In this document: positions 3,382 to 23,076 of the stretch, piece after piece | How the letters are laid out: every line of letters starts with the position of its first letter | Numbering within the stretch: position 1 is the stretch's first letter | Source of the DNA: a virus | Taxonomy: Duplodnaviria; Caudoviricetes | Virus record (IMG/VR): IMGVR_UViG_3300021500_000001 | Coordinates: 1-58,827 of that record | Strand: one strand, 5' to 3' | DNA: 58,827 nucleotides | Position numbers and translations under genes: made by a program | Notes under the pieces: model-generated | Seen by the model: the letters and a program-made list of their open reading frames with translations, nothing else | What the model was told of the DNA's origin: nothing | Databases searched by the model: none

Positions 3382-4017
3382 GTGAAACCTTACTACGACC
3401 ATAAAGGAATTACCATTTATCATGGGGATTGCTTTGAAATAATGTCAGGGCTTGAGCCAGTGGATCTCATTATGATTGACCCTCCCTATGGAATTGGGCA
3501 AAGCTTTGAGAAAAACAGAGCAGGAAGCAACAAAGCAAAGGCAGGAAATTATGGTAATAAAACTTGGGATGATAAGCCTATAGACTTTAACTTGTTGTGG
3601 GAATTATTATCCCTTGGGAAATATGCTTGTTGTTTTGGGGGGAATTATTATCCTATGCCTCCATCAAGTTGTTGGCTTGTATGGGACAAGGAAAATACAG
3701 GTGATTTCGCCGATTGCGAGCTTGCCTGGACTAATTATGGAAAAGCTGTAAGACTTATCAGACATCAATGGAACGGAATGTTAAGAAAGGGAAAAGAACC
3801 ACGATATCATCCTACGCAGAAACCGCTAGAAGTGATCAGGTGGGCGATACAGCACGCACCAAAACATGATACTATCCTTGACCCTATGATGGGATCGGGT
3901 ACTACGCTTAGAGCAGCCAAGGATTTAGGTCTTGAAGCAATAGGCATAGAAAAAGAAGAAGAATATTGCGAAATAGCGGCCCGTCGCCTGCAGCAGGAAG
4001 TTTTGTTTGGAATATAA
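3382..4017 (+). CDS. Orphan DNA amino-methyltransferase (beta class, DPPY)
   Basis: IDPPYG catalytic motif, HPTQKP, ILDPMMGSGTT SAM-binding motif; GTG start after GGAGG RBS. Confidence 0.9.
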   Translation: MKPYYDHKGITIYHGDCFEIMSGLEPVDLIMIDPPYGIGQSFEKNRAGSNKAKAGNYGNKTWDDKPIDFNLLWELLSLGKYACCFGGNYYPMPPSSCWLVWDKENTGDFADCELAWTNYGKAVRLIRHQWNGMLRKGKEPRYHPTQKPLEVIRWAIQHAPKHDTILDPMMGSGTTLRAAKDLGLEAIGIEKEEEYCEIAARRLQQEVLFGI

Positions 4018-4018
4018 T

Positions 4019-5578
4019 ATGCAAGTTAAAGTTAAAATAGAAAAAGATAAAATCAGGCTCTCTTTTCCTTATGATAAAGAAAAGGTTAAATGTTGCCAGA
4101 CAATGGCAATGCGCTGGAGCAAGACAAAAAAAGAATGGTCTACTCCAAACAATTATATGAACCGTGTTTGCTTAAATCGTCTTTTCCCGGGCATACTTCC
4201 ACCTGAACAGAAAGAAGAAATAAAAGAATTAGTGATACCCTCTTTTCTGATGGATCACCAGAAGGAGGCGCTGAGAAGGGCTGCACGACAAAACAGGAGG
4301 GGCATATTCCATGACACTGGTACCGGAAAGAGTTGTACTGCATTAGAGATATACCGGCACCATAAGGTAAAAACCTTAGTTATATGTCCGTTAAGTCTAA
4401 TAGAAGGGGCTTGGTTCGAGGAAATCTATAACAGATATACAGATATTGACGCAAGTAATCTGTGGGCTGCCAAAAAAAGAAGCCCTGCGGCCTTCGGCAA
4501 AGCACTTGAAAAAGATTTGTGTATTATTAATTATGAGTCTTTTAGAACGGTCGACAAAAAACTTGCGAACGCAGGTTTCAAGATGGCTATCCTGGATGAG
4601 TCTGCCAGGATACGTACCTGGAAAAAGAATTCAACGGCTGACAAGGTAATTAATTTCTGCGACAATGTGAAATATGTTTATTTATTATCAGGGGTTCCTG
4701 CCCCTAACAGTATGCTCGAATATTGGTCACAGATTAGGATACTCGATCCTCTACTGTGGGGTAAGTCTTTTTACAGATTCAGGATAAAATACTTCAACCC
4801 CGGGGGATATGGTGGCTATACCTGGGAGGTAAAGCCTGAATGTGAAAAAAAGCTCAAAGAAGATATTAAAACTGTAGCCGAGTATGTAAATAAAGCGGAT
4901 GTCTTGGACCTCCCCGGACGCACTGAATCGATGAGAGTTTTTCAGTTATCGGCAGAAGAACGAAAACATTATAAGAATATTAAGAATGACCTTGTGACGA
5001 TTATTGAAGAAGAAGGGACGACAGCGGTAACGACACCGAGTGCGGTAACAGCGATCATGAAACTGAGGCAGATATCATCCGGTTTTCTCCTGGATGGAGA
5101 TATCTGCCATACAATAGGAAATTCGAAAATCAAAGAACTTTTACAGCTTCTCGAAGATATAGGCGAAAAGCAAGTTATTATCTGGATACAATTTAAAGCT
5201 GAAGCCCAAAGAATTAAAGAAGCCTTACAAAAGAAGGGTATCGATAGCGGTATATTGAATAGCACAACTGCAGAAAACGAAAAGCAAAATTATTTGAAAG
5301 CTTTTAAAGGTGGAAATATTCAGTATATTATTTGTCATCCGAAGTCAGTGGGGTATGGCCATACCCTCACAAATTGTTCAGAGGCTATCTATTATAGCTA
5401 TTCGTATAGCTACGATGATGATTATCAGTCGGGCGATCGGATTTACCGTTTTGGGCAAAAAGAAAAATGCTCTCTCTATTACTTGATAGCTGACAAAACA
5501 ATGGACTTAGCTATTTTAAGGGCTGTGCAAAAAAAAGACAGCACGAGTATGGCGATCTTAAATTATCTCAAAAAATAG
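4019..5578 (+). CDS. SNF2-family helicase
   Basis: DTGTGKS, ILDES, LSGVP, GHTL and Q..DRIYRFGQ motifs. Confidence 0.9.
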   Translation: MQVKVKIEKDKIRLSFPYDKEKVKCCQTMAMRWSKTKKEWSTPNNYMNRVCLNRLFPGILPPEQKEEIKELVIPSFLMDHQKEALRRAARQNRRGIFHDTGTGKSCTALEIYRHHKVKTLVICPLSLIEGAWFEEIYNRYTDIDASNLWAAKKRSPAAFGKALEKDLCIINYESFRTVDKKLANAGFKMAILDESARIRTWKKNSTADKVINFCDNVKYVYLLSGVPAPNSMLEYWSQIRILDPLLWGKSFYRFRIKYFNPGGYGGYTWEVKPECEKKLKEDIKTVAEYVNKADVLDLPGRTESMRVFQLSAEERKHYKNIKNDLVTIIEEEGTTAVTTPSAVTAIMKLRQISSGFLLDGDICHTIGNSKIKELLQLLEDIGEKQVIIWIQFKAEAQRIKEALQKKGIDSGILNSTTAENEKQNYLKAFKGGNIQYIICHPKSVGYGHTLTNCSEAIYYSYSYSYDDDYQSGDRIYRFGQKEKCSLYYLIADKTMDLAILRAVQKKDSTSMAILNYLKK

Positions 5579-5579
5579 C

Positions 5580-5617
5580 TTGCAATGTTTGTATAATGTT
5601 GTATAATGTTGTATAAA
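5580..5617 (+). promoter_or_regulatory. Promoter-like region with a 10-bp tandem repeat
   Basis: TTGCAA at 5580, then TTGTATAA three times at 10-bp period (two full TATAAT); RBS AGGAGG follows. Confidence 0.5.
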
Positions 5618-5633
5618 TATAGGAGGGGAAATT

Positions 5634-5882
5634 ATGTTTTTGTACAGAATTTCTCAGGATGTAAACAATGATTATAATACCTACGATTCGGCTGTTGTGT
5701 GTGCCGAGAGCGAAGAGGATGCACAGATGATACATCCTGATAAAGATTATAGTGACTGGGATGGAAAATGTGAACCATTTTTCGATTGGTGCGCCGCAAA
5801 AGATGTAAAAGTAGAAATAATAGGGATTGCCTCTCGTATTTTGCCGAGAGGAGTTGTCGTAGCCTCCTATAATGCAGGATAA
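5634..5882 (+). CDS. Hypothetical phage protein
   Basis: ORF with AGGAGG RBS; YDSAVVCAESEEDA..IHP pattern. Confidence 0.75.
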   Translation: MFLYRISQDVNNDYNTYDSAVVCAESEEDAQMIHPDKDYSDWDGKCEPFFDWCAAKDVKVEIIGIASRILPRGVVVASYNAG

Positions 5883-15095: not shown

Positions 15096-15245
15096 ATGCC
15101 ATTGAAATCAGGTAAGAGCAAGAAAATCATAAGCCGGAATATCTCGGAGATGATAAGGGCTGGTCATCCTAAGGAACAAGCCATAGCTGCTGCTTTAAAT
15201 AAAGCTCGGAAGAAGAGAAAAAGTAAGGCTCGGCGCACCCTATAA
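15096..15245 (+). CDS. Small basic phage protein (49 aa, [34 protein letters not shown]...)
   Basis: Translated by hand; GGAG RBS; stop overlaps the TerL start; pattern familiar from phage packaging regions. Confidence 0.75.
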
Positions 15246-16888
15246 TGTCCGAACTGAATTTTACTATGACAGATGAGGATATTGATCGTTTCGCATCCCT
15301 CATTCTTCAGCAATCCAAGCCCGAGTATATTGATTCCTTTCTCGCTGGTTCGCAGTACCTAGAATACAAGGATGATCCTGTTGGGTTTTGCGAGCAGGTA
15401 CTTAGAGAGACGCTGACGGATGATGTCAAAGCAATGATGGAGTCTGTCAGGGATCATCAAGTCACCGTTGCCGTGTCCGGTAATGCTACAGGCAAATCTC
15501 ATGGAGCGGCGAGAGTAGCCGTTTGGTTTTATCTTTGTCATAAAGACACTAAAGTTTTTACGGCTGCGGCTCCTCCTTATGATAACCTTAAAAATATTCT
15601 TTGGGGGGAAATAGGGAGTATAGTCCGTGATCACCCTGAACTTTTTGGGGGTCATATTATTACCTCGATGGAAATCAGGAGAGGACCTGAAGATTATTTG
15701 ATCGGTGTGACTATCCCAAGTGCGGGGACGGAGCAGGAAAAGGAAGCCAAGTTCTCGGGAAAGCATCAAAAGCACATGCTTTTTTGTTTTGATGAGGGAG
15801 ATGCGATCCCTTCGCCTGTTTATAAAGGTACTGAATCGTGCATGTCCGGTGGCTTTATTAGGCTTCTCATTATGTTCAACCCACGTCATGCTGCCGGTCC
15901 TGTTTACAGGATGATCCGTGATAAGACAGCAAATGTCGTACATCTTTCAGCTTTTCGCCACCCAAACGTTATTACGGGTAAAGACATTATACCAGGGGCA
16001 GTAAGCAGGGATGTTACTGTGCGGCGGATAAACGAGTGGACCAGACCACTCAGGGTAAACGATAAAGTCAGTAAGAGAAGTGTTTATACACTTCCCGATT
16101 ACCTGGTGGGAGCGACCGGAAAATCTCACGCTGGAAAAGCTTACTCTCCCTTAGTGGGAGGGGAATACAAAATAAAAAATCCTGCTTTCAGTTATATGGT
16201 TTTAGGGCAATATCCTGCCCAAGGTTCCAACCAACTCATATCTGAGGAATGGATATCAGCGGCCAGAACCAGATATGACCTGTACGTTTCTAAGTATGGT
16301 GAGGGGCCTCCAGCCGGGACTACAGGGGTTATGGGCCTCGATGTTGCAGAACTGGGAGATGACAGAAATGTTGCTGTAGGTAGGTATGGTGGCTATCTCA
16401 CTCCTTTTGATTCTTGGGGCGGTGTCGATACCGTTGAAACGGGTGATATTGCGATCAAATGGTACAAAAATCACCCTGGTATTAGCCGAGCGTATGTAGA
16501 TGCTAATGGGTATGGGGCCGGTGTAGCCCCATACATGCAAAAGTTTGGGAAAGGGGTAGTTGCGACAGGGATTAAAGTAACCTGGAATCCTACTATAAAA
16601 ACAGAGCTTGGCGACTTCAGAATATTAAGGGATGAGCTTTTATGGAGGGTGCGGGAGTGGCTGAGGACTGATCCTGGTGCGATGTTACCGCCGAACGAAG
16701 ATTTACTTGAAGAATTGCTCGTGCCTACATACGACACTGACACTGGTTATGTTGATGTTATGCCTACAAGAGAGATGAAGGAATTGCTTGCGAGGAGCCC
16801 TGATCATTTAATGGCTTTAGCTATGACCTTCGCTGGCGCAGGTGGCTTCTTCGATGGTTGTGATTTTCAGGCTTTCCCCGAAGAATAA
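15245..16888 (+). CDS. terL: Terminase large subunit
   Basis: Walker A SGNATGKS, Walker B CFDEG, MFNP coupling motif, nuclease motifs GLDVAELGDD and RSPD. Confidence 0.92.
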   Translation: MSELNFTMTDEDIDRFASLILQQSKPEYIDSFLAGSQYLEYKDDPVGFCEQVLRETLTDDVKAMMESVRDHQVTVAVSGNATGKSHGAARVAVWFYLCHKDTKVFTAAAPPYDNLKNILWGEIGSIVRDHPELFGGHIITSMEIRRGPEDYLIGVTIPSAGTEQEKEAKFSGKHQKHMLFCFDEGDAIPSPVYKGTESCMSGGFIRLLIMFNPRHAAGPVYRMIRDKTANVVHLSAFRHPNVITGKDIIPGAVSRDVTVRRINEWTRPLRVNDKVSKRSVYTLPDYLVGATGKSHAGKAYSPLVGGEYKIKNPAFSYMVLGQYPAQGSNQLISEEWISAARTRYDLYVSKYGEGPPAGTTGVMGLDVAELGDDRNVAVGRYGGYLTPFDSWGGVDTVETGDIAIKWYKNHPGISRAYVDANGYGAGVAPYMQKFGKGVVATGIKVTWNPTIKTELGDFRILRDELLWRVREWLRTDPGAMLPPNEDLLEELLVPTYDTDTGYVDVMPTREMKELLARSPDHLMALAMTFAGAGGFFDGCDFQAFPEE

Positions 16889-16964: not shown

Positions 16965-17378
16965 ATGAAAAAAATGTGGCCCGTTTTTGTCGTTTTCTGT
17001 ATTACCCTTGTCTTGCTATGGGCGGTTAGCACGGCTGCCGTCGCCGTTGCCATGGACCAGTGCGAAGTAATAGGGAACTCATACACAATTACTATAGACG
17101 GGAATGATATAGTTTTGTCGGACTTTGTTGAATCGTCCCCTATGTTTTCTCCGGCCCCCAAGTGTGCCGGTACTGTGACTCTTTTAGGCCCAGCGGGGCA
17201 ATATTCTACTCTTGATTGGTGTGTTGGACATGATGGGCTCAGGATATCCGGGCTCCACGCCTTTCTTTCCGAGGATGGTTTGATGGTCTATCTTTTGCCA
17301 TCAGGTCTGCATACTTTATGTATCGGCGACACAGTTTATATGACGGAGCAAAAGATTTCACAGTTTCTTTTTAAGTGA
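16965..17378 (+). CDS. Exported or membrane-anchored hypothetical protein (moron-like)
   Basis: Signal-peptide-like N-terminus; followed by its own terminator. Confidence 0.7.
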   Translation: MKKMWPVFVVFCITLVLLWAVSTAAVAVAMDQCEVIGNSYTITIDGNDIVLSDFVESSPMFSPAPKCAGTVTLLGPAGQYSTLDWCVGHDGLRISGLHAFLSEDGLMVYLLPSGLHTLCIGDTVYMTEQKISQFLFK

Positions 17379-17403
17379 TTTACACATCCTTCCTCCTTCC
17401 AAC

Positions 17404-17438
17404 AAGGCCGCTTGGTATTTTCGGGCGGCCTTTTATTT
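17404..17438 (+). terminator. Intrinsic terminator
   Basis: AAGGCCGC..GCGGCCTT followed by TTATTT. Confidence 0.7.
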
Positions 17439-17446
17439 AGGTAATA

Positions 17447-17674
17447 ATGGGGAAAAATATATCAGCACAAGAACTTAAAGCTCACCCTGCCCCCGGCTAT
17501 TACAGGTGGAAATCCGGGGATGGTGTCACTTATCATAGCGGCCTTGCAAAGGTATTTTGTAAACGAGGCACCTGGTTCTGTGATACTCTTTGACATATTT
17601 CAGAGTTAGACAGGGTGTCTAACGATTTGTCTTTCTTTGGTCCTATTTCTATGGCAAGAGATGTATTTAAGTAA
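17447..17674 (+). pseudogene. Small ORF interrupted by an in-frame TGA at 17591
   Basis: Frame stays open after the TGA until TAA at the MTase RBS. Confidence 0.35.
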
Positions 17675-17685
17675 AAGGAAAAAAA

Positions 17686-18522
17686 ATGGAAATAAAGCAT
17701 GATCTGTATTTAGGGGATTGTGAAGAAATACTAAAAGAATTGTCTGATAATTCAGTCGATTTAATTTTTACTTCACCTCCGTATGTTGACCAAAGGAAAA
17801 AAGCATACGGAGGAATCCATCCTGACGATTATGTTGAATGGTTTTTGCCTAAAGCCGAGCAAATGTTACGCATTTTAAAGCCAGCAGGGACTTTTGTATT
17901 AAATATAAAGGAGAAAGTTGTAAATGGTGAGCGTAGCACTTATGCCATGGAACTCATTATTGAAATGAGAAAACAAGGGTGGCTTTGGACTGAGGAATTT
18001 ATATGGCACAAAAAAAATTGTTATCCTGGGAAATGGCCTAATAGATTTAGAGATGCTTGGGAACGACTATCACAATTCAATAAGCAGAAAAAATTTAATA
18101 TGTATCAAGAAGAAGTAATGGTGCCGATGGGAGACTGGGCAAAAAGCAGATTAAAAAAATTAAGCGAAACTGATAAGAAAAGAGACGAGTCTAAAGTAGG
18201 TAGCGGATTTGGGAGAAATATATCTAACTGGCTCAATCGTGATATGGCATATCCAACAAATGTACTTCATTTAGCAACAGAATGTAGTAACAAAAAACAC
18301 AGTGCTACTTTTCCTGAAGGATTGCCTGAATGGTTTATAAAATTATTTACTAAAGTTGGCGATACAGTTTTGGACCCATTTATGGGCTCAGGAACTACAA
18401 ACATCGTAGCTAATAGGATGCGCAGGAATTCTATTGGTATTGAGCTAGTCCCAGAATATTATGAAATGGTCAAAGCGCTCCACCTGACCGCTGTTCCGCT
18501 GGCGCTTCGTAGCGGCAGGTGA
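17686..18522 (+). CDS. Orphan DNA methyltransferase (beta class, SPPY, likely N4-cytosine); C-terminus fused to attC
   Basis: FTSPPY, HSATFP and VLDPFMGSGTT motifs; last codons (ALHLTAVPLALRSGR) are read through the attC stem. Confidence 0.9.
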   Translation: MEIKHDLYLGDCEEILKELSDNSVDLIFTSPPYVDQRKKAYGGIHPDDYVEWFLPKAEQMLRILKPAGTFVLNIKEKVVNGERSTYAMELIIEMRKQGWLWTEEFIWHKKNCYPGKWPNRFRDAWERLSQFNKQKKFNMYQEEVMVPMGDWAKSRLKKLSETDKKRDESKVGSGFGRNISNWLNRDMAYPTNVLHLATECSNKKHSATFPEGLPEWFIKLFTKVGDTVLDPFMGSGTTNIVANRMRRNSIGIELVPEYYEMVKALHLTAVPLALRSGR

Positions 18523-18537
18523 GCTTAATCGTTATAC
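18471..18537 (+). mobile_element. attC: Integron attC site remnant (R'' box missing)
   Basis: GCTC(C)ACCTG(A)CCGCT pairs with AGCGGCAGGTGAGC leaving two extrahelical bases (G and T on the bottom strand); R' box GTTATAC at 18531-18537. Confidence 0.75.
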
Positions 18538-18610
18538 GATGCCGATACTAAACACGGAAGATATTGAGCACAAACAAATCAAATGATTTTTTATGAAATT
18601 GGAGGTTATT

Positions 18611-18855
18611 ATGAAATACGATTTTGATGGTAAATATAAGCTTGGAAAAGGTTACAAAGGACAATTCACTTTCTCGGTGGTATATTCCCAATTCTGCCAA
18701 AAGCATCGGGAAAAGGAACGAAAAGGGGTAAAGCAGTAGTCCATGTTAAAGGACTTTACTCTGATCCTGATCCGGTATATGATAAAGCAAGAGAAATTTG
18801 CTGGGCTCTTGAAGAGGGAAAATACCAGGGACCAAAAAACGTGGTGATAAAATGA
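18611..18855 (+). pseudogene. Frameshifted small gene
   Basis: GGAGG RBS; MKYDFDGKYKLGKGYKGQFTFSV continues in another frame as GIFPILPKASGKGTKRGKAVVHVKG..GPKNVVIK. Confidence 0.5.
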
Positions 18856-18903
18856 CAAAAATTAAAGTAGGCGATTATATCCTTCCGAAATGGTAGATTA
18901 AAA

Positions 18904-19215
18904 ATGTTTTCTTTAACAGAAATAGATTTGAATTGTCCTTCAAGCCTATCTTTTTCTGCCTCTGATCAGAATGGGTGGACTATCCTCTATGAGCCGGAAC
19001 CGGAGATTATTAAAGAAGATGAAGAAGATTTATGGATGCTCTTCTCAGAATATAGGAAAAAGAAAGCATACATAAAATCATTGTGGTTGGAAACTTTGAG
19101 AAAGAAACAAAAGTTGAATCTGTTTGTAGAGAAAAGAATAATATATTACTTACGATTAATGCTACCAATATCTGGATGGATTTCACGGGCTGGCTACCGC
19201 AAGAAAAGAGACTGA
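18904..19215 (+). CDS. Hypothetical protein
   Basis: ORF only. Confidence 0.5.
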   Translation: MFSLTEIDLNCPSSLSFSASDQNGWTILYEPEPEIIKEDEEDLWMLFSEYRKKKAYIKSLWLETLRKKQKLNLFVEKRIIYYLRLMLPISGWISRAGYRKKRD

Positions 19216-19322
19216 CTTTCTTATAGTTTTCTAGATAACGGAAGTGAAAGATAATTAAGAAATATCCGTTTAAGTAAGTCGATTGGTTGCGGTTTTACCT
19301 TCTGATACAGTATAATACCTTT

Positions 19323-20075
19323 ATGAGTAACATAAAAGGTAAAATAGAGTTAATTACTCATCCTTACTCTTTTAATCTTTTACAAGCACGTATGGATTAT
19401 GCGAGATTAACAGGAACAGAGTTAGTTGAACGGCCTTATTGGTTCAAAAATATAGAGACTAAGCAACTATATTATGATCTGTACGCCTGTCTTGGTTGGC
19501 CTACGGAGGTAACAGACAGTACAAATGGCCTTCCTGGTTATGCTGCTATAGTTGGCGTTGTTCGTCCGAATGATTCAATTACTGATCCACCTGATCCTCT
19601 CAACGCAAACTTTCAGCTTCTTGACGAGGCTGAGTCAAAAGATGTGCCGACATTACTCAAGGAGTGCGTTAGACTTCGGGGAGAGTATGGGTTTGGGGTT
19701 CATAAGAACTTGCTTAGGGTGTGGCTCGGGGACCCGGACCGTTTTTTTACTCCTCTCGCTCTTTATAATGAGGCACTTATTGCTGAGGGCGGAGAAAGGG
19801 CGGCTATATTAATAAGCCCTCCCGATGATTTTTACACCCAAAAGATTTTTGATAATTATGTCCGGGCGCTGAGGTCTACACTCTTAAAGGATACCCAACG
19901 TTTTTTCTTTGGACACAATTATATTTTGCAGAACAGATTAAGGGAATTCAAGAAGGACGATCCTTGTGTTTTTGCGGTTGGTGGTTTGGTATTTTCTCTG
20001 TTGAACCGTGTACGCTGGATGGATACCCTGGGTGAAAATGCCTTTACAGTGAAGGAAGATGAAAATGAATTTTGA
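19323..20075 (+). CDS. Hypothetical protein between TerL and portal
   Basis: About 250-aa ORF preceded by TTGCGG-18 bp-TATAAT. Confidence 0.75.
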   Translation: MSNIKGKIELITHPYSFNLLQARMDYARLTGTELVERPYWFKNIETKQLYYDLYACLGWPTEVTDSTNGLPGYAAIVGVVRPNDSITDPPDPLNANFQLLDEAESKDVPTLLKECVRLRGEYGFGVHKNLLRVWLGDPDRFFTPLALYNEALIAEGGERAAILISPPDDFYTQKIFDNYVRALRSTLLKDTQRFFFGHNYILQNRLREFKKDDPCVFAVGGLVFSLLNRVRWMDTLGENAFTVKEDENEF

Positions 20076-21117: not shown

Positions 21118-23076
21118 ATGCCAGCCATAAGTAAAGAATGGTCCCTTTCCAATATACCGCCCAAAGGACATAAAGATGTCGCAGCCTTTGCAAATAATCT
21201 CTTCGAAATCTCCCGTTTAGAACTTGAGAGGCTTGGAAAACATGACGACCTACTCGCCAACTACAGCCTGTACAGGGGCAAAACAGTTGGTGGGACACGT
21301 GGTAAGTCTGTTGGTTTGACGCCGGTTAATCTATATTTTTCCAACATTGAAAGGACTGTGGCAAACATCACGGCCAGAGAGCCGGTTGGAGAGGTAGTTG
21401 ATCTTGATGGCACAGATCAGGATGGGGCAGAGGATATCCTGGACTCCAAGCTGAAGAAGTGGTGGAAGGAGACCAATCAGCAAAAGAAAATCCGGTCTTC
21501 AGCCCGCACTATGGAGATTTATGGTATAACGCTTGAGAAGCCTGGTTGGAATAAAGAACAGGAATGCCCGGATATTGTTATAAGTGATCCATATACCTTC
21601 TATCCTGCTCCCGGATTTTTCGAGAATCTTGACACTGACCTTCCTTTTGTCACTTTTGCTTATTTGAGATATGTAGATGCAGTGGAGTCTGAGTTCAATG
21701 TCAAAAATATAGTACCCGATGAAGCATACGACTTGCTCGGAACAGTAAGGGAAGAATATAAGGGTACAGGTTGCACTGATCTTGATGTCTCCCTTACGGG
21801 CAAATATCAAGACCCGATGACAAAGGCTGACATAGACAGTAAGGGAGCCATAGACAAAAAGCTTGAACGTTGCTTGGTCAAAGAGGTATGGGTAAGGGAT
21901 TACAGAAAGACCAAGGTGAGCGAGGAGCATCCGGTCATTAATCCTGAAACAGGGTTGCCTGAGGTGGACGAAAAAGGGGAAATGATTATTGAGAAAATAA
22001 CGAAGATGGTCCCTGTTTATCCTGACGGAGTAAGGAAGATAACTATTGCCGCTACAAGCGGCGAAGACCATGAGGGTTTCGTTGTCCTGGATGACTGCGC
22101 AAACCCTAATATTAATCCGGCGCTGGATATTGAAATTGCTAAGACTACTCATCCGTGGGGCAGATTTCCGATTTACCACGCAAACAGTTACAAGGACCTT
22201 GTGTCCTTATGGGGATTTGCCGCCGCTGAACAAGTGGGTGATTTGATCGTTAAGATCAATAAAATAATTGCCAGGCTCATTAATTACGTTATCAATGTAA
22301 TGAGTCCGCCGCTTATAATTCAAAAGCATTGTGGTATTACACGTGAGATGATCGAAAACCAACTTAAAAAGTCTGGCCGCTTAATATTAATGCCGACAAC
22401 TCCGAATGCCAGAATCGAATTTATGGATATACCGAGTTTGCCACCCACCTTTTTTCAGGTACTTGAAGTTATAGTCGGTTTCTTCGACAGAGTATATGCT
22501 ATTGAGAGCGCAGATAGGGGTCAGGCTCCGAGGGGGGTAATCGCTGCCGCTGCCATTGTTTCATTGCAGGAGCGAAATCAGGAGTTGATGCAGTCAAAAA
22601 CATCATCGGTTGAGAGTTTGGCGGAGAATAGATCAAGATGGTGCATAGGACTGTATCAGAATTTCGGTGTAGCTTCAGAGTATGTGGAAGTGGCTGACGG
22701 ACCTTCAGAGTTTGTCGGTACTAATTTTGCCGGTCGGAAGTTCAGTTACGTAGTTGAGTCCGGTTCTACTACTCCAAAAACCAGCTTACAGGTGGCCGAA
22801 CAAAGTGTTAAATTATATGGGATGGGAGCTATCGACAGGCAAGCTCTTTTAGAGTCTGTTAATTTCCCTGATTGGAAATCTATAATCGAGCGGGTTGGTG
22901 AGGGTCAATTAGGACAGGCTTTGCAGATATTAATTGACGCAGGTTTACCGGAAGAGCAAGCTATGATGTTACAGCAATATCTTATACAGCCGGGCCAAGG
23001 TCCCGGTGGATCGAATCAAGAAAAGAAAAACATTGAGCCTCAGCCCGGGGAAGCTGGTGCTTCAAAAACTCAATAG
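21118..23076 (+). CDS. Portal protein (P22-like)
   Basis: 652 aa; position between TerL and scaffold; largely helical with G..AAAAI.SLQE and Q/G-rich tail. Confidence 0.85.
   Translation: MPAISKEWSLSNIPPKGHKDVAAFANNLFEISRLELERLGKHDDLLANYSLYRGKTVGGTRGKSVGLTPVNLYFSNIERTVANITAREPVGEVVDLDGTDQDGAEDILDSKLKKWWKETNQQKKIRSSARTMEIYGITLEKPGWNKEQECPDIVISDPYTFYPAPGFFENLDTDLPFVTFAYLRYVDAVESEFNVKNIVPDEAYDLLGTVREEYKGTGCTDLDVSLTGKYQDPMTKADIDSKGAIDKKLERCLVKEVWVRDYRKTKVSEEHPVINPETGLPEVDEKGEMIIEKITKMVPVYPDGVRKITIAATSGEDHEGFVVLDDCANPNINPALDIEIAKTTHPWGRFPIYHANSYKDLVSLWGFAAAEQVGDLIVKINKIIARLINYVINVMSPPLIIQKHCGITREMIENQLKKSGRLILMPTTPNARIEFMDIPSLPPTFFQVLEVIVGFFDRVYAIESADRGQAPRGVIAAAAIVSLQERNQELMQSKTSSVESLAENRSRWCIGLYQNFGVASEYVEVADGPSEFVGTNFAGRKFSYVVESGSTTPKTSLQVAEQSVKLYGMGAIDRQALLESVNFPDWKSIIERVGEGQLGQALQILIDAGLPEEQAMMLQQYLIQPGQGPGGSNQEKKNIEPQPGEAGASKTQ

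Follow-up and report, generated by a model that had tools for sequence, protein, structure and literature searches.

A phage orphan methyltransferase fused in-frame to a truncated integron attC site, probably derived from a restriction-modification cassette

The stretch of DNA analysed here (the window) is virus record IMGVR_UViG_3300021500_000001 in its entirety, 58,827 bp long, with direct terminal repeats and a completeness rating of 100%; it is the complete genome of a phage (Caudoviricetes), virulent by appearance. Downstream of its gene for the large terminase (TerL; 15245–16888, phrog_2, E 1e-22) lies an insert with a DNA methyltransferase (methylase) gene, the reading frame of which continues into a hairpin of the kind found in attC, the site belonging to integron cassettes. 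This chimeric open reading frame (ORF), its hairpin and the restriction-modification (R-M) cassette from which both probably descend are described below, and the coordinates of the features are collected in Table 1. In the window, no match to a tyrosine recombinase (PF00589) was found, and ARAGORN reported neither tRNA nor tmRNA. A megablast search with 20 kb of the window returned no close relative from the phage database, and distant blastn matches to that database were only to the methylase of Salmonella phage SE2 and to two Sulfolobus viruses.

The body of the ORF is an ordinary methylase. PF01555 (N6_N4_Mtase) matches residues 24–263 over profile positions 1–220 of 221 (E 4e-43; 148.3 bits against a cut-off of 26.7), SPPY and DPFMGSGTT motifs are present, and the 264 methylase codons contain neither a stop nor a frameshift. 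The nearest solved structure is the N4-cytosine methylase M.PvuII (PDB 1BOO; E 8e-36 over residues 6–259 of the homolog P0002), which is likewise a permuted, beta-class methylase with an SPP[FY] motif. The relationship is distant, and the partner nuclease associated with the methylase described here is of the EcoO109I family (PF14511) rather than PvuII. The orphan methyltransferase is probably a beta-class enzyme with N4-cytosine specificity, to which the SPPY motif is presumably a pointer.

The end of the ORF is unlike that of its relatives. Close homologs run into the thousands, are spread over many phyla and, for the best 120 of 8000 scored candidates, are 82–100% identical. They are about 283 residues long, and after EYYEMVK(A/S) they go on as Q-I-S-P-V-E-L-Y-L-F-E-P.... 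As the original prediction had read from the letters, the window ORF instead ends ...EYYEMVK-ALHLTAVPLALRSGR, passing into the hairpin that leads to GTTATAC, with the TGA stop codon (18520–18522) inside the hairpin 3' arm. The same prediction had asked whether the closest homologs might natively end in this tail. None of the 184 loci with a findable ORF does, and among the 120 top proteins it occurs only in the window's own; the last 14 codons (265–278) are foreign to the methylase family. At the nucleotide level, homology between the window methylase and the collected loci ends at 18470–18478 in most cases and earlier, from 18338, in some.

The foreign tail is encoded by an imperfect, GC-rich hairpin with 14 stem pairs, which align to the stem of the attC-family model described below. 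The top strand folds with −16.3 kcal/mol (z −2.3; matched by 5 of 200 shuffles) and the bottom strand with −16.6 kcal/mol (z −2.2). As a 44-mer the hairpin occurs once in the window, with 0 occurrences expected. In attC sites, extrahelical bases at fixed positions select the bottom strand for recombination. The extrahelical G and T that had been predicted on the bottom strand are there, visible on the top-strand 5' arm as the single-base bulges C18481 and A18487, and the column of the bulged A is invariant across all 11 seed sites of the model.

The two boxes of a complete attC, R'' (RYYYAAC) and R' (GTTRRRY), pair on the bottom strand into the R box, where the integrase cuts. Of the R' box that had been proposed in the window, the GTT start holds, whereas the strict consensus does not: GTTATAC has T in position 5. 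This mismatch is no disqualifier, because bona fide members of the family also deviate from GTTRRRY (GTTATGT, GTTATAA, GTTCGGC and GTTCTGC). The R'' box is, as had been claimed, missing exactly at the fusion point. Positions 18465–18470 are methylase codons (AATGGT), and in the alignment to the model only the last base of the box, C18471, is kept. Since R'' is lost, no R box can form, which should leave an inert attC half-site and a gene fixed in place; the loss predicts no, or very low, integrase recombination at the truncated attC.

The assignment to the attC family comes from a custom covariance model (R1), built from 11 attC sites of cassette arrays at seven loci, with the window excluded, and run over the whole window with filters off. 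It gave one strong match, at 18465–18537 on the + strand only, with 46.1 bits (E 5e-10), so that the check with an attC model that the original prediction had called for turned out in its favour. The next-best match in the 58.8 kb reached 15.5 bits (E 0.12); the second-best stretch, 22225–22255, is a 31-nt inverted repeat with R''- and R'-like ends and almost no stem, probably a chance hit. In the alignment of the element to R1 the bulges, spacers, stem and GTT box all match, and only R'' positions 1–6 fail. An nhmmer profile made from three attC sites recovered 18471–18534 (E 9.6e-9). The seed sites themselves behave as structured elements: when R box and bulged L stem are aligned, 77.5% of the cells are paired, against 24–41% with a slid partner, and 14 of 21 pairs show compensatory changes; the observed values were reached by 0 of 500 shuffles.

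The window itself holds one attC-family site, no integrase and no array. Elsewhere, sites matched by R1 have the arrangement of integron cassettes. Co-oriented R1 arrays are present in L228, G002–G006, L135 and L050. On a contig of a Kiritimatiellae metagenome-assembled genome (MAG; L050 is from a Kiritimatiellae bacterium) at least 10 R1 matches lie on the + strand of a 20-kb stretch, and an R-M pair sits exactly between two of the sites; in the family of the gammaproteobacterial MAG that holds L048, four of five genomes carry R1 arrays. Three full-length integron integrases were found in two of these genomes, G003 and G004, scoring 406–409 bits against the TIGR02249 cut-off of 265, each adjoining R1 matches that lie on the other strand, as in a classical integron. 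The Kiritimatiellae MAG G001 gave partial integrase (IntI) matches only, the best of 184.5 bits lying below the same cut-off, and one partial IntI-like gene stands beside three R1 matches on the opposite strand.

Locus L135 shows the cassette structure most directly. Its order is attC; methylase and endonuclease; attC; a 252-aa ORF; attC; a GmrSD-like ORF; attC. The R'' of every cassette is the reverse complement of the R' of the preceding site, the signature of cassettes circularising at G|TT. Because of the array structure and the integrase adjacency, the attC assignment is independent of the choice of seeds, and the hairpin fused to the phage methylase belongs to the attC family. By blastn, the element (18471–18534) matched L136:5638–5700 with 81% identity over 64 nt and L135:5968–6030 with 78% among the fetched loci. 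Exact and gapped searches for the hairpin gave 0 matches in viral contigs and, among 204 loci, only the window's own copy (L001).

The probable parent of the chimera is represented by locus L136. Its methylase gene (4001–4852) overlaps a 252-aa ORF (4839–5597) that encodes a Type II endonuclease of the EcoO109I family (PF14511, E 2e-93), and the endonuclease gene is followed by a 72-nt element (5632–5703) that begins with a ...TAAC box, ends with GTTAGGT and shares stem, bulges and loop core with the window hairpin. The parent layout that had been anticipated, a methylase with a longer C-terminus followed by an endonuclease and a similar attC, thus exists, with an attC 81% identical to that of the window. 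When the L136 endonuclease was used as a tblastn query, a high-scoring segment pair followed immediately after the methylase at 160 of the 203 homolog loci. No such match was obtained anywhere in the phage, neither with the L136 query in tblastn nor with PF14511; tblastn is the stronger of these tests, because control genomes for PF14511 also gave no match. With no endonuclease found in the phage, the window methylase is an orphan. The L136 endonuclease has no phmmer match to the solved EcoO109I chain, its kinship with EcoO109I being at the Pfam level only, and the same specificity as EcoO109I is for this reason not claimed.

That the methylase-endonuclease pair travels as a cassette was also examined without a model, by comparing the DNA after the endonuclease with the DNA before the methylase and using permuted pairs as the control. 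Flank complementarity of at least 8 nt anchored on AAC/GTT was present in 13 of 117 testable R-M loci, against a permutation mean of 1.5 and maximum of 5; the pair is therefore a cassette that recurs with attC sites of several types. A tree of 165 methylases places the window within a clade of 12 leaves (support 0.86), of which 5 of the other 11 members are R1-positive; tree-wide, 22 of 164 loci carry either cassette label.

The point where methylase and attC meet can be narrowed to a few bases. Homology to attC starts at 18471 and homology to the methylase ends at 18478, leaving eight nucleotides, CAAAGCGC, that would belong to both. On the methylase side, the closest proteins read MVKAQIS at the junction, with an analogous word in the L120 methylase; on the attC side the word corresponds to AAC, spacer and start of the stem, and analogous words are present in the attCs of L135 and L195. 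The closest methylase DNA, a 270-nt contig from metagenome run X3, has 5 differences from the window over 219 nt, up to 18478, and is unlike it thereafter. Other copies of the attC in the same metagenomes have different flanks before 18471, ending ...GTCTAA, ...GGCTAA or ...GTCCAA, and C18471 added to these foreign flanks completes R''-type boxes. The CAAA microhomology that had been suggested is part of this putative 8-nt overlap. The proposed deletion of methylase tail, endonuclease and R'' is supported, with the correction that the methylase has lost just 19 codons of native tail and that its catalytic domain is complete. Measured on L136, the missing segment would comprise about 852 nt, to which the methylase contributes its final 66 nt and R'' six bases, the rest being the endonuclease and a short spacer. 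From these comparisons we infer one deletion of at least about 0.85 kb across the 8-nt microhomology.

Logan contigs of four metagenome runs (X1–X4) allowed the assembly to be checked. In X1, possibly the source sample, one contig (record 1) covers 17300–18506 together with 2.7 kb of phage DNA to the left, and crosses the fusion point without a difference at a depth of 39.3; a second (record 3) covers 18477–19400 and continues into phage DNA on the right, also without differences, at a depth of 37.1. The fusion at 18471 lies within a single X1 contig. Depth over 18436–18577 was about 6 to more than 300 times that of other bins in the four runs (X1: 349 against 39), with several bins in X2–X4 at zero depth.

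The methylase lies in a segment that related phages do not have. Such phages were obtained through a TerL search. L207 and L208 align with the window until 17674 and again from 19234, with about 400 bp of other DNA in between; L205 and L206 align until 17634 and resume at 19357, the two parts being separated by only about 80 bp; and L222 aligns until 17650 and from 19340, where about 1.1 kb of other sequence intervenes. A contig of run X4, from a relative of about 90% identity, joins 17660 straight to 19264. Because the alignments break here and the X4 contig joins these two positions, 17661–19263 is regarded as an insert of 1603 bp. Its edges form an imperfect direct repeat of 14 nt (17661–17674 and 19264–19277, 11 of 14 identical), which is part of a conserved promoter-like region ahead of the next gene. 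The full 24-nt promoter-like motif occurs once in the window, preceding the next conserved gene (ORF region 19287–20075), and its left part is the portion repeated at the left edge of the insert.

The original prediction had tentatively placed the left junction of the cassette at a GTTAGAC/GTCTAAC pair (17605–17623). This pair is native phage DNA and not a cassette junction, because it is conserved in L207, L208, L205 and L222, all of which lack the methylase, and because it scores as terminator-like.

Table 1. Features of the methylase locus, in window coordinates
Feature	Position	Strand	Remarks
Terminator-like hairpin, phage backbone	17605–17623	+	GTTAGAC/GTCTAAC pair; 8-bp stem, 3-nt loop, T-rich tail (terminator scan)
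Variable insert ("moron" slot), 1603 bp	17661–19263	+	Between phage backbone genes, downstream of TerL; absent from related phages
Leader with ribosome-binding site AAGGA	17675–17685	+	Phage-relative homology stops at 17674; several bacterial loci align from about 17672
DNA methyltransferase ORF, chimeric, 278 aa	17686–18522	+	Codons 1–264 methylase, 265–278 from attC remnant
Truncated attC	18465–18537	+	From the last R'' base onward; R1 46.1 bits, E 5e-10
attC, former R''	18465–18471		
attC, spacer	18472–18476		
attC, L'' (5' arm)	18477–18492		
attC, loop	18493–18510		18 nt
attC, L' (3' arm)	18511–18524		
attC, spacer	18525–18530		6 nt
attC, R'	18531–18537		GTTATAC
Putative deletion junction, 8 nt	18471–18478	+	CAAAGCGC; common to methylase frame (V-K-A-Q) and attC R'' end plus spacer
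Small gene, protein family of about 88 aa, unknown function	18612–18855	+	Frameshifted in the window near 18677
ORF, 103 aa, unknown function	18904–19215	+	Inside the insert; only 4 homologs (73–85% identity), all on short contigs
Promoter-like motif, phage backbone	19269–19316	+	TTGCGG 19287–19292, 18-nt spacer, TATAAT 19311–19316; kept in L207, L208, L205 and L222

A history that would join these features starts from a two-gene Type II R-M operon, a methylase with an overlapping EcoO109I-family endonuclease, which in part of its very wide range is an integron cassette. A deletion between two copies of CAAAGCGC, one at methylase codons 262–265 and the other at the border of R'' and spacer in the downstream attC, would have taken the last 19 methylase codons, the entire endonuclease gene and the R'' box; the intact parent attC would read ...AAC-AAAGCGCTCC, after the methylase and endonuclease. 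The methylase now reads through the L'' arm and loop and stops in the L' arm, and the gene, its attC half-site being unable to form the R box, would be fixed in place. In the phage, the most likely use of a nuclease-free methylase would be methylation of phage DNA against hosts with the intact cassette. We give a probability of roughly 0.85 to the whole of this reading, that is, an R-M integron cassette from which the endonuclease was deleted, with the methylase fused to the attC remnant and turned to phage counter-defence.

A number of observations weigh against it. Only 2 of 80 R-M loci from genomes and about 9–11 of 80 from metagenomes are R1-positive; because most R-M loci show no attC, it is the hairpin, and not the gene by itself, that points to a cassette origin. 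A donor in which both methylase and attC are identical was not recovered: the highest identity of an attC match is 81%, on a metagenome contig, and the best methylase DNA matches are about 80% identical in the loci, with about 98% only in a 219-nt contig piece. The R-M cassette of L135 has an attC of its own of a different, long type, so the fused attC might have belonged to a cassette lying farther downstream, in which case more might have been deleted. At the left end of the insert, a leader of about 11 nt is kept and no R' remnant is seen. R1 is a custom model, and its seeds from L135 and L136 were first found by their likeness to the window element. RGGNCCY is only mildly, and not significantly, depleted in the phage (31 sites observed, 43 expected, z −1.7), a count offered as no more than a remark. 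To these are added the conservation of the native methylase tail and the contig break within the element, which bear on alternatives discussed next.

One such alternative is that the methylase is a decaying relic: the deletion took away a C-terminal part that the enzyme needs, and too little time has passed since then for the ORF to close. We consider this unlikely, albeit the likeliest of the alternatives. P268, L271 and L273 of the native tail are kept in at least 90% of 31 sequences and a PVELYLF-like tail is present in 125 of 184 loci; since the tail is conserved, its loss may impair the enzyme. Of 168 near-invariant columns, the window protein departs from the family at 3, where the mean is 0.47; this is a tie for the highest number in the set of 120 sequences. 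The neighbouring small gene of the insert is frameshifted, and the homolog in phage SE2 may be broken, with an annotated coding sequence (CDS) covering only part of the match. Yet the same number of deviations is found in four other homologs, the Pfam domain is full-length, reaching position 220 of 221, with catalytic and S-adenosylmethionine (SAM)-binding motifs intact, the 264 codons are open behind a good ribosome-binding site, and some homologs natively end soon after the helix (274-aa forms in ...ELFLL or ...ELYFF); the retention of 31 RGGNCCY sites by the phage is also counted against a relic. An AlphaFold2 model of the native homolog P0002, made from an alignment of 31 rows, is of low quality, with a mean predicted local distance difference test score (pLDDT) of 54.9 and values below 50 at residues 266–283. 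Another route to the same locus, which appears improbable, is entry by the integron integrase itself, through recombination in an infected cell between attC and a secondary site, which would make the R' box a hybrid junction (G|TTATAC) and relegate the deletions to later trimming. It would fit the end of attC homology at about 18534–18535, just past the expected crossover and seen in other copies too, and the existence of donor-type arrays with integrases; phage-borne attCs are recognised by IntI1, according to the accessible part of Qi, Rajabal, Ghaly, Tetu & Gillings (2023, Front Microbiol 14:1091391; PMC9892861). The left junction, however, lacks a GTT or R' remnant and has only the short leader, no second attC was found to the right of R', where a gene family of other phages is present, and the 14-nt direct repeat of phage promoter-region sequence that bounds the insert argues for recombination within phage-type sequence.

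Two simpler explanations concern the hairpin and its assembly. A mis-join inside an attC family that is highly repeated in the source metagenome would produce a chimera by artefact: no single Logan contig covers the whole element, the two X1 contigs break within it (record 1 reaches 18506 and record 3 runs from 18477, an overlap of 30 nt), and the depth of the element is about 9 times that of its flanks. We regard this as very improbable, given that both contigs are free of differences and nearly equal in depth and that the flanks are syntenic with the same related phages; even under a mis-join, the fusion at 18471 would stand, being contained in one contig. Scarcely credible is the idea that the hairpin is an ordinary phage terminator, or an element like the repetitive extragenic palindromic (REP) sequences or miniature inverted-repeat transposable elements (MITEs), into which the methylase frame reads by chance. 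It is a GC-rich stem-loop at a gene end, and its fold z is only about −2.3. Against this, the terminator scan did not call it, there being no T tract and a loop of 18 nt, and an Rfam scan of 17300–18900 gave three chance-level matches (E 2.4–7.8), none on the hairpin. The match to R1 includes the bulge positions, spacers and GTT box, and the relatives of the hairpin sit between cassettes in co-oriented arrays beside integron integrases.

If the locus is the remnant of an R-M cassette, it occupies a position between several known systems. Fused or "attC-less" integron cassettes arise by deletions that remove all or part of attC and make a cassette non-excisable; here, in distinction to such bacterial cassettes, a coding sequence is joined to the attC, the toxic partner gene is gone and the recipient is a phage. 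It is a long-standing assumption that the orphan methylases of phages come from bacterial R-M systems, and Murphy et al., in Appl Environ Microbiol in 2013, reportedly described orphan phage methyltransferases as homologous to Type II R-M methylases and presumed them to serve self-protection. The window methylase is like these in lacking a cognate nuclease, with the difference that the donor context and the putative orphaning deletion can be read from the DNA.

Methylase cassettes in phages are already in print: the accessible part of PMC9892861 describes integrons or attC clusters in 21 phages, with five predicted methylases among the cassettes, for which its authors suggest a role against restriction. 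The window resembles those phages in carrying a bacterial-type attC in an apparently virulent phage with N6_N4_Mtase-family cargo. As far as the accessible text goes, that screen needed at least two attC sites and so yielded clusters, whereas the window has a single attC without R'', fused in-frame; unlike in the cases presented there, the parental R-M cassette can be pointed out in its intact form, and a single deletion would account for the missing endonuclease. Sedentary chromosomal integrons have been put forward as stores of anti-phage defence (bioRxiv 10.1101/2024.07.02.601686, in its accessible part). The donor arrays seen here, with the R-M pair and the GmrSD-like nuclease of L135, hold defence cassettes in the same manner, although that work, so far as its accessible text shows, concerns bacterial arrays and the present locus a flow of cassettes into a phage. 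A narrow literature search found no earlier case in which one truncated attC is joined in-frame to the methylase of a phage and the parent R-M cassette is identified.

The locus may accordingly be seen as a readable fossil that joins integron defence stores with orphan phage methylases, in which the type of donor, the probable event and the recipient slot can all be identified, and it would be an example of a bacterial defence gene turned into a phage counter-defence gene. A single attC without R'' inside a coding sequence is missed by pipelines that want complete sites or at least two of them, so cassette-derived phage genes may be under-counted. The abundance of the attC family in the same metagenomes offers a handle on the ecological partners of the phage. 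A wider proposal, which we rate as doubtful, is that the "moron" slots of this phage group are landing sites for integron cassettes in which the toxic partner is routinely deleted and the attC half-site is kept for a function, arrays and phages forming one gene pool in vent communities. If it were true, the half-site could be a transcript-end or stabilising hairpin for the methylase mRNA, or a patch of homology for sampling cassettes from host arrays.

The right part of the insert, 18538–19263, has no second attC by model R1 and resembles neither what L207 or L222 has in the slot nor any R-M locus. Of its small gene, a 71-aa frame (18640–18852) has 116 homolog clusters, which it matches from their residue 28 or so, the N-terminus being in another frame; in a relative from run X3 the frame stays open by virtue of one extra base behind 18677. 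Two unrelated viral contigs of 57–63 kb (L232 and L233) also have the family of about 88 aa, and the small gene was probably brought by the phage and not by the cassette. The 103-aa ORF has no Pfam or PHROG match.

The R-M pair is found at 78–88% protein identity across MAGs of Bacteroidota, Chlorobi, Gammaproteobacteria, Desulfobacterota, Kiritimatiellae, Planctomycetes, Atribacteria and others (L045–L204), an unusually well-conserved and widely transferred R-M module. Salmonella phage SE2, a Jerseyvirus (L234, NC_016763: 31132–31911), has a homolog of the same methylase, with 71% nucleotide identity over 650 nt; its annotated CDS is the last 429 nt only, so the gene may be broken, and no endonuclease lies alongside. 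In the donor-type arrays the neighbours are also defence-like (L135:4154–5941 and L136:1402–3831): the GmrSD-like nuclease (PF03235, E 8e-30) has its own cassette in L135, and an 809-aa AAA/NACHT-like ATPase in the L135/L136 neighbourhoods is followed by an attC-like site.

Over the whole window, some 6-bp palindromes are strongly avoided, GGATCC being absent against 15 expected (z −3.9) and CAGCTG present once against 14.5 (z −3.7), and GGCC (z −3.7) and GGNNCC (z −3.5) are also depleted. Judged by these counts, the avoidance of palindromes suggests pressure from several restriction systems.

The content of the slot that follows the small ORF at 17447–17593 differs from one related phage to another, with lengths of about 80 bp, about 400 bp and about 1.1 kb beside the 1.6 kb of the window (window 17661–19277; L207:5299–5696; L222:1388–2529). 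Ahead of each slot insert stands a copy of a TTTAA(A/G)TAAGT... motif, which makes up the upstream portion of the promoter-like region belonging to the next gene. Further upstream, the ORF at 16965–17378 is followed by a strong terminator-like hairpin (17404–17432; 12 pairs, 7 of them G-C, and a T tract). In L205 and L206, the match to TerL is interrupted near the 3' end of the gene by about 390 nt absent from the window (L205:3046–3434; L206:2850–3238); the last 47 nt of the gene are repeated beyond this segment, which may be an inserted element.

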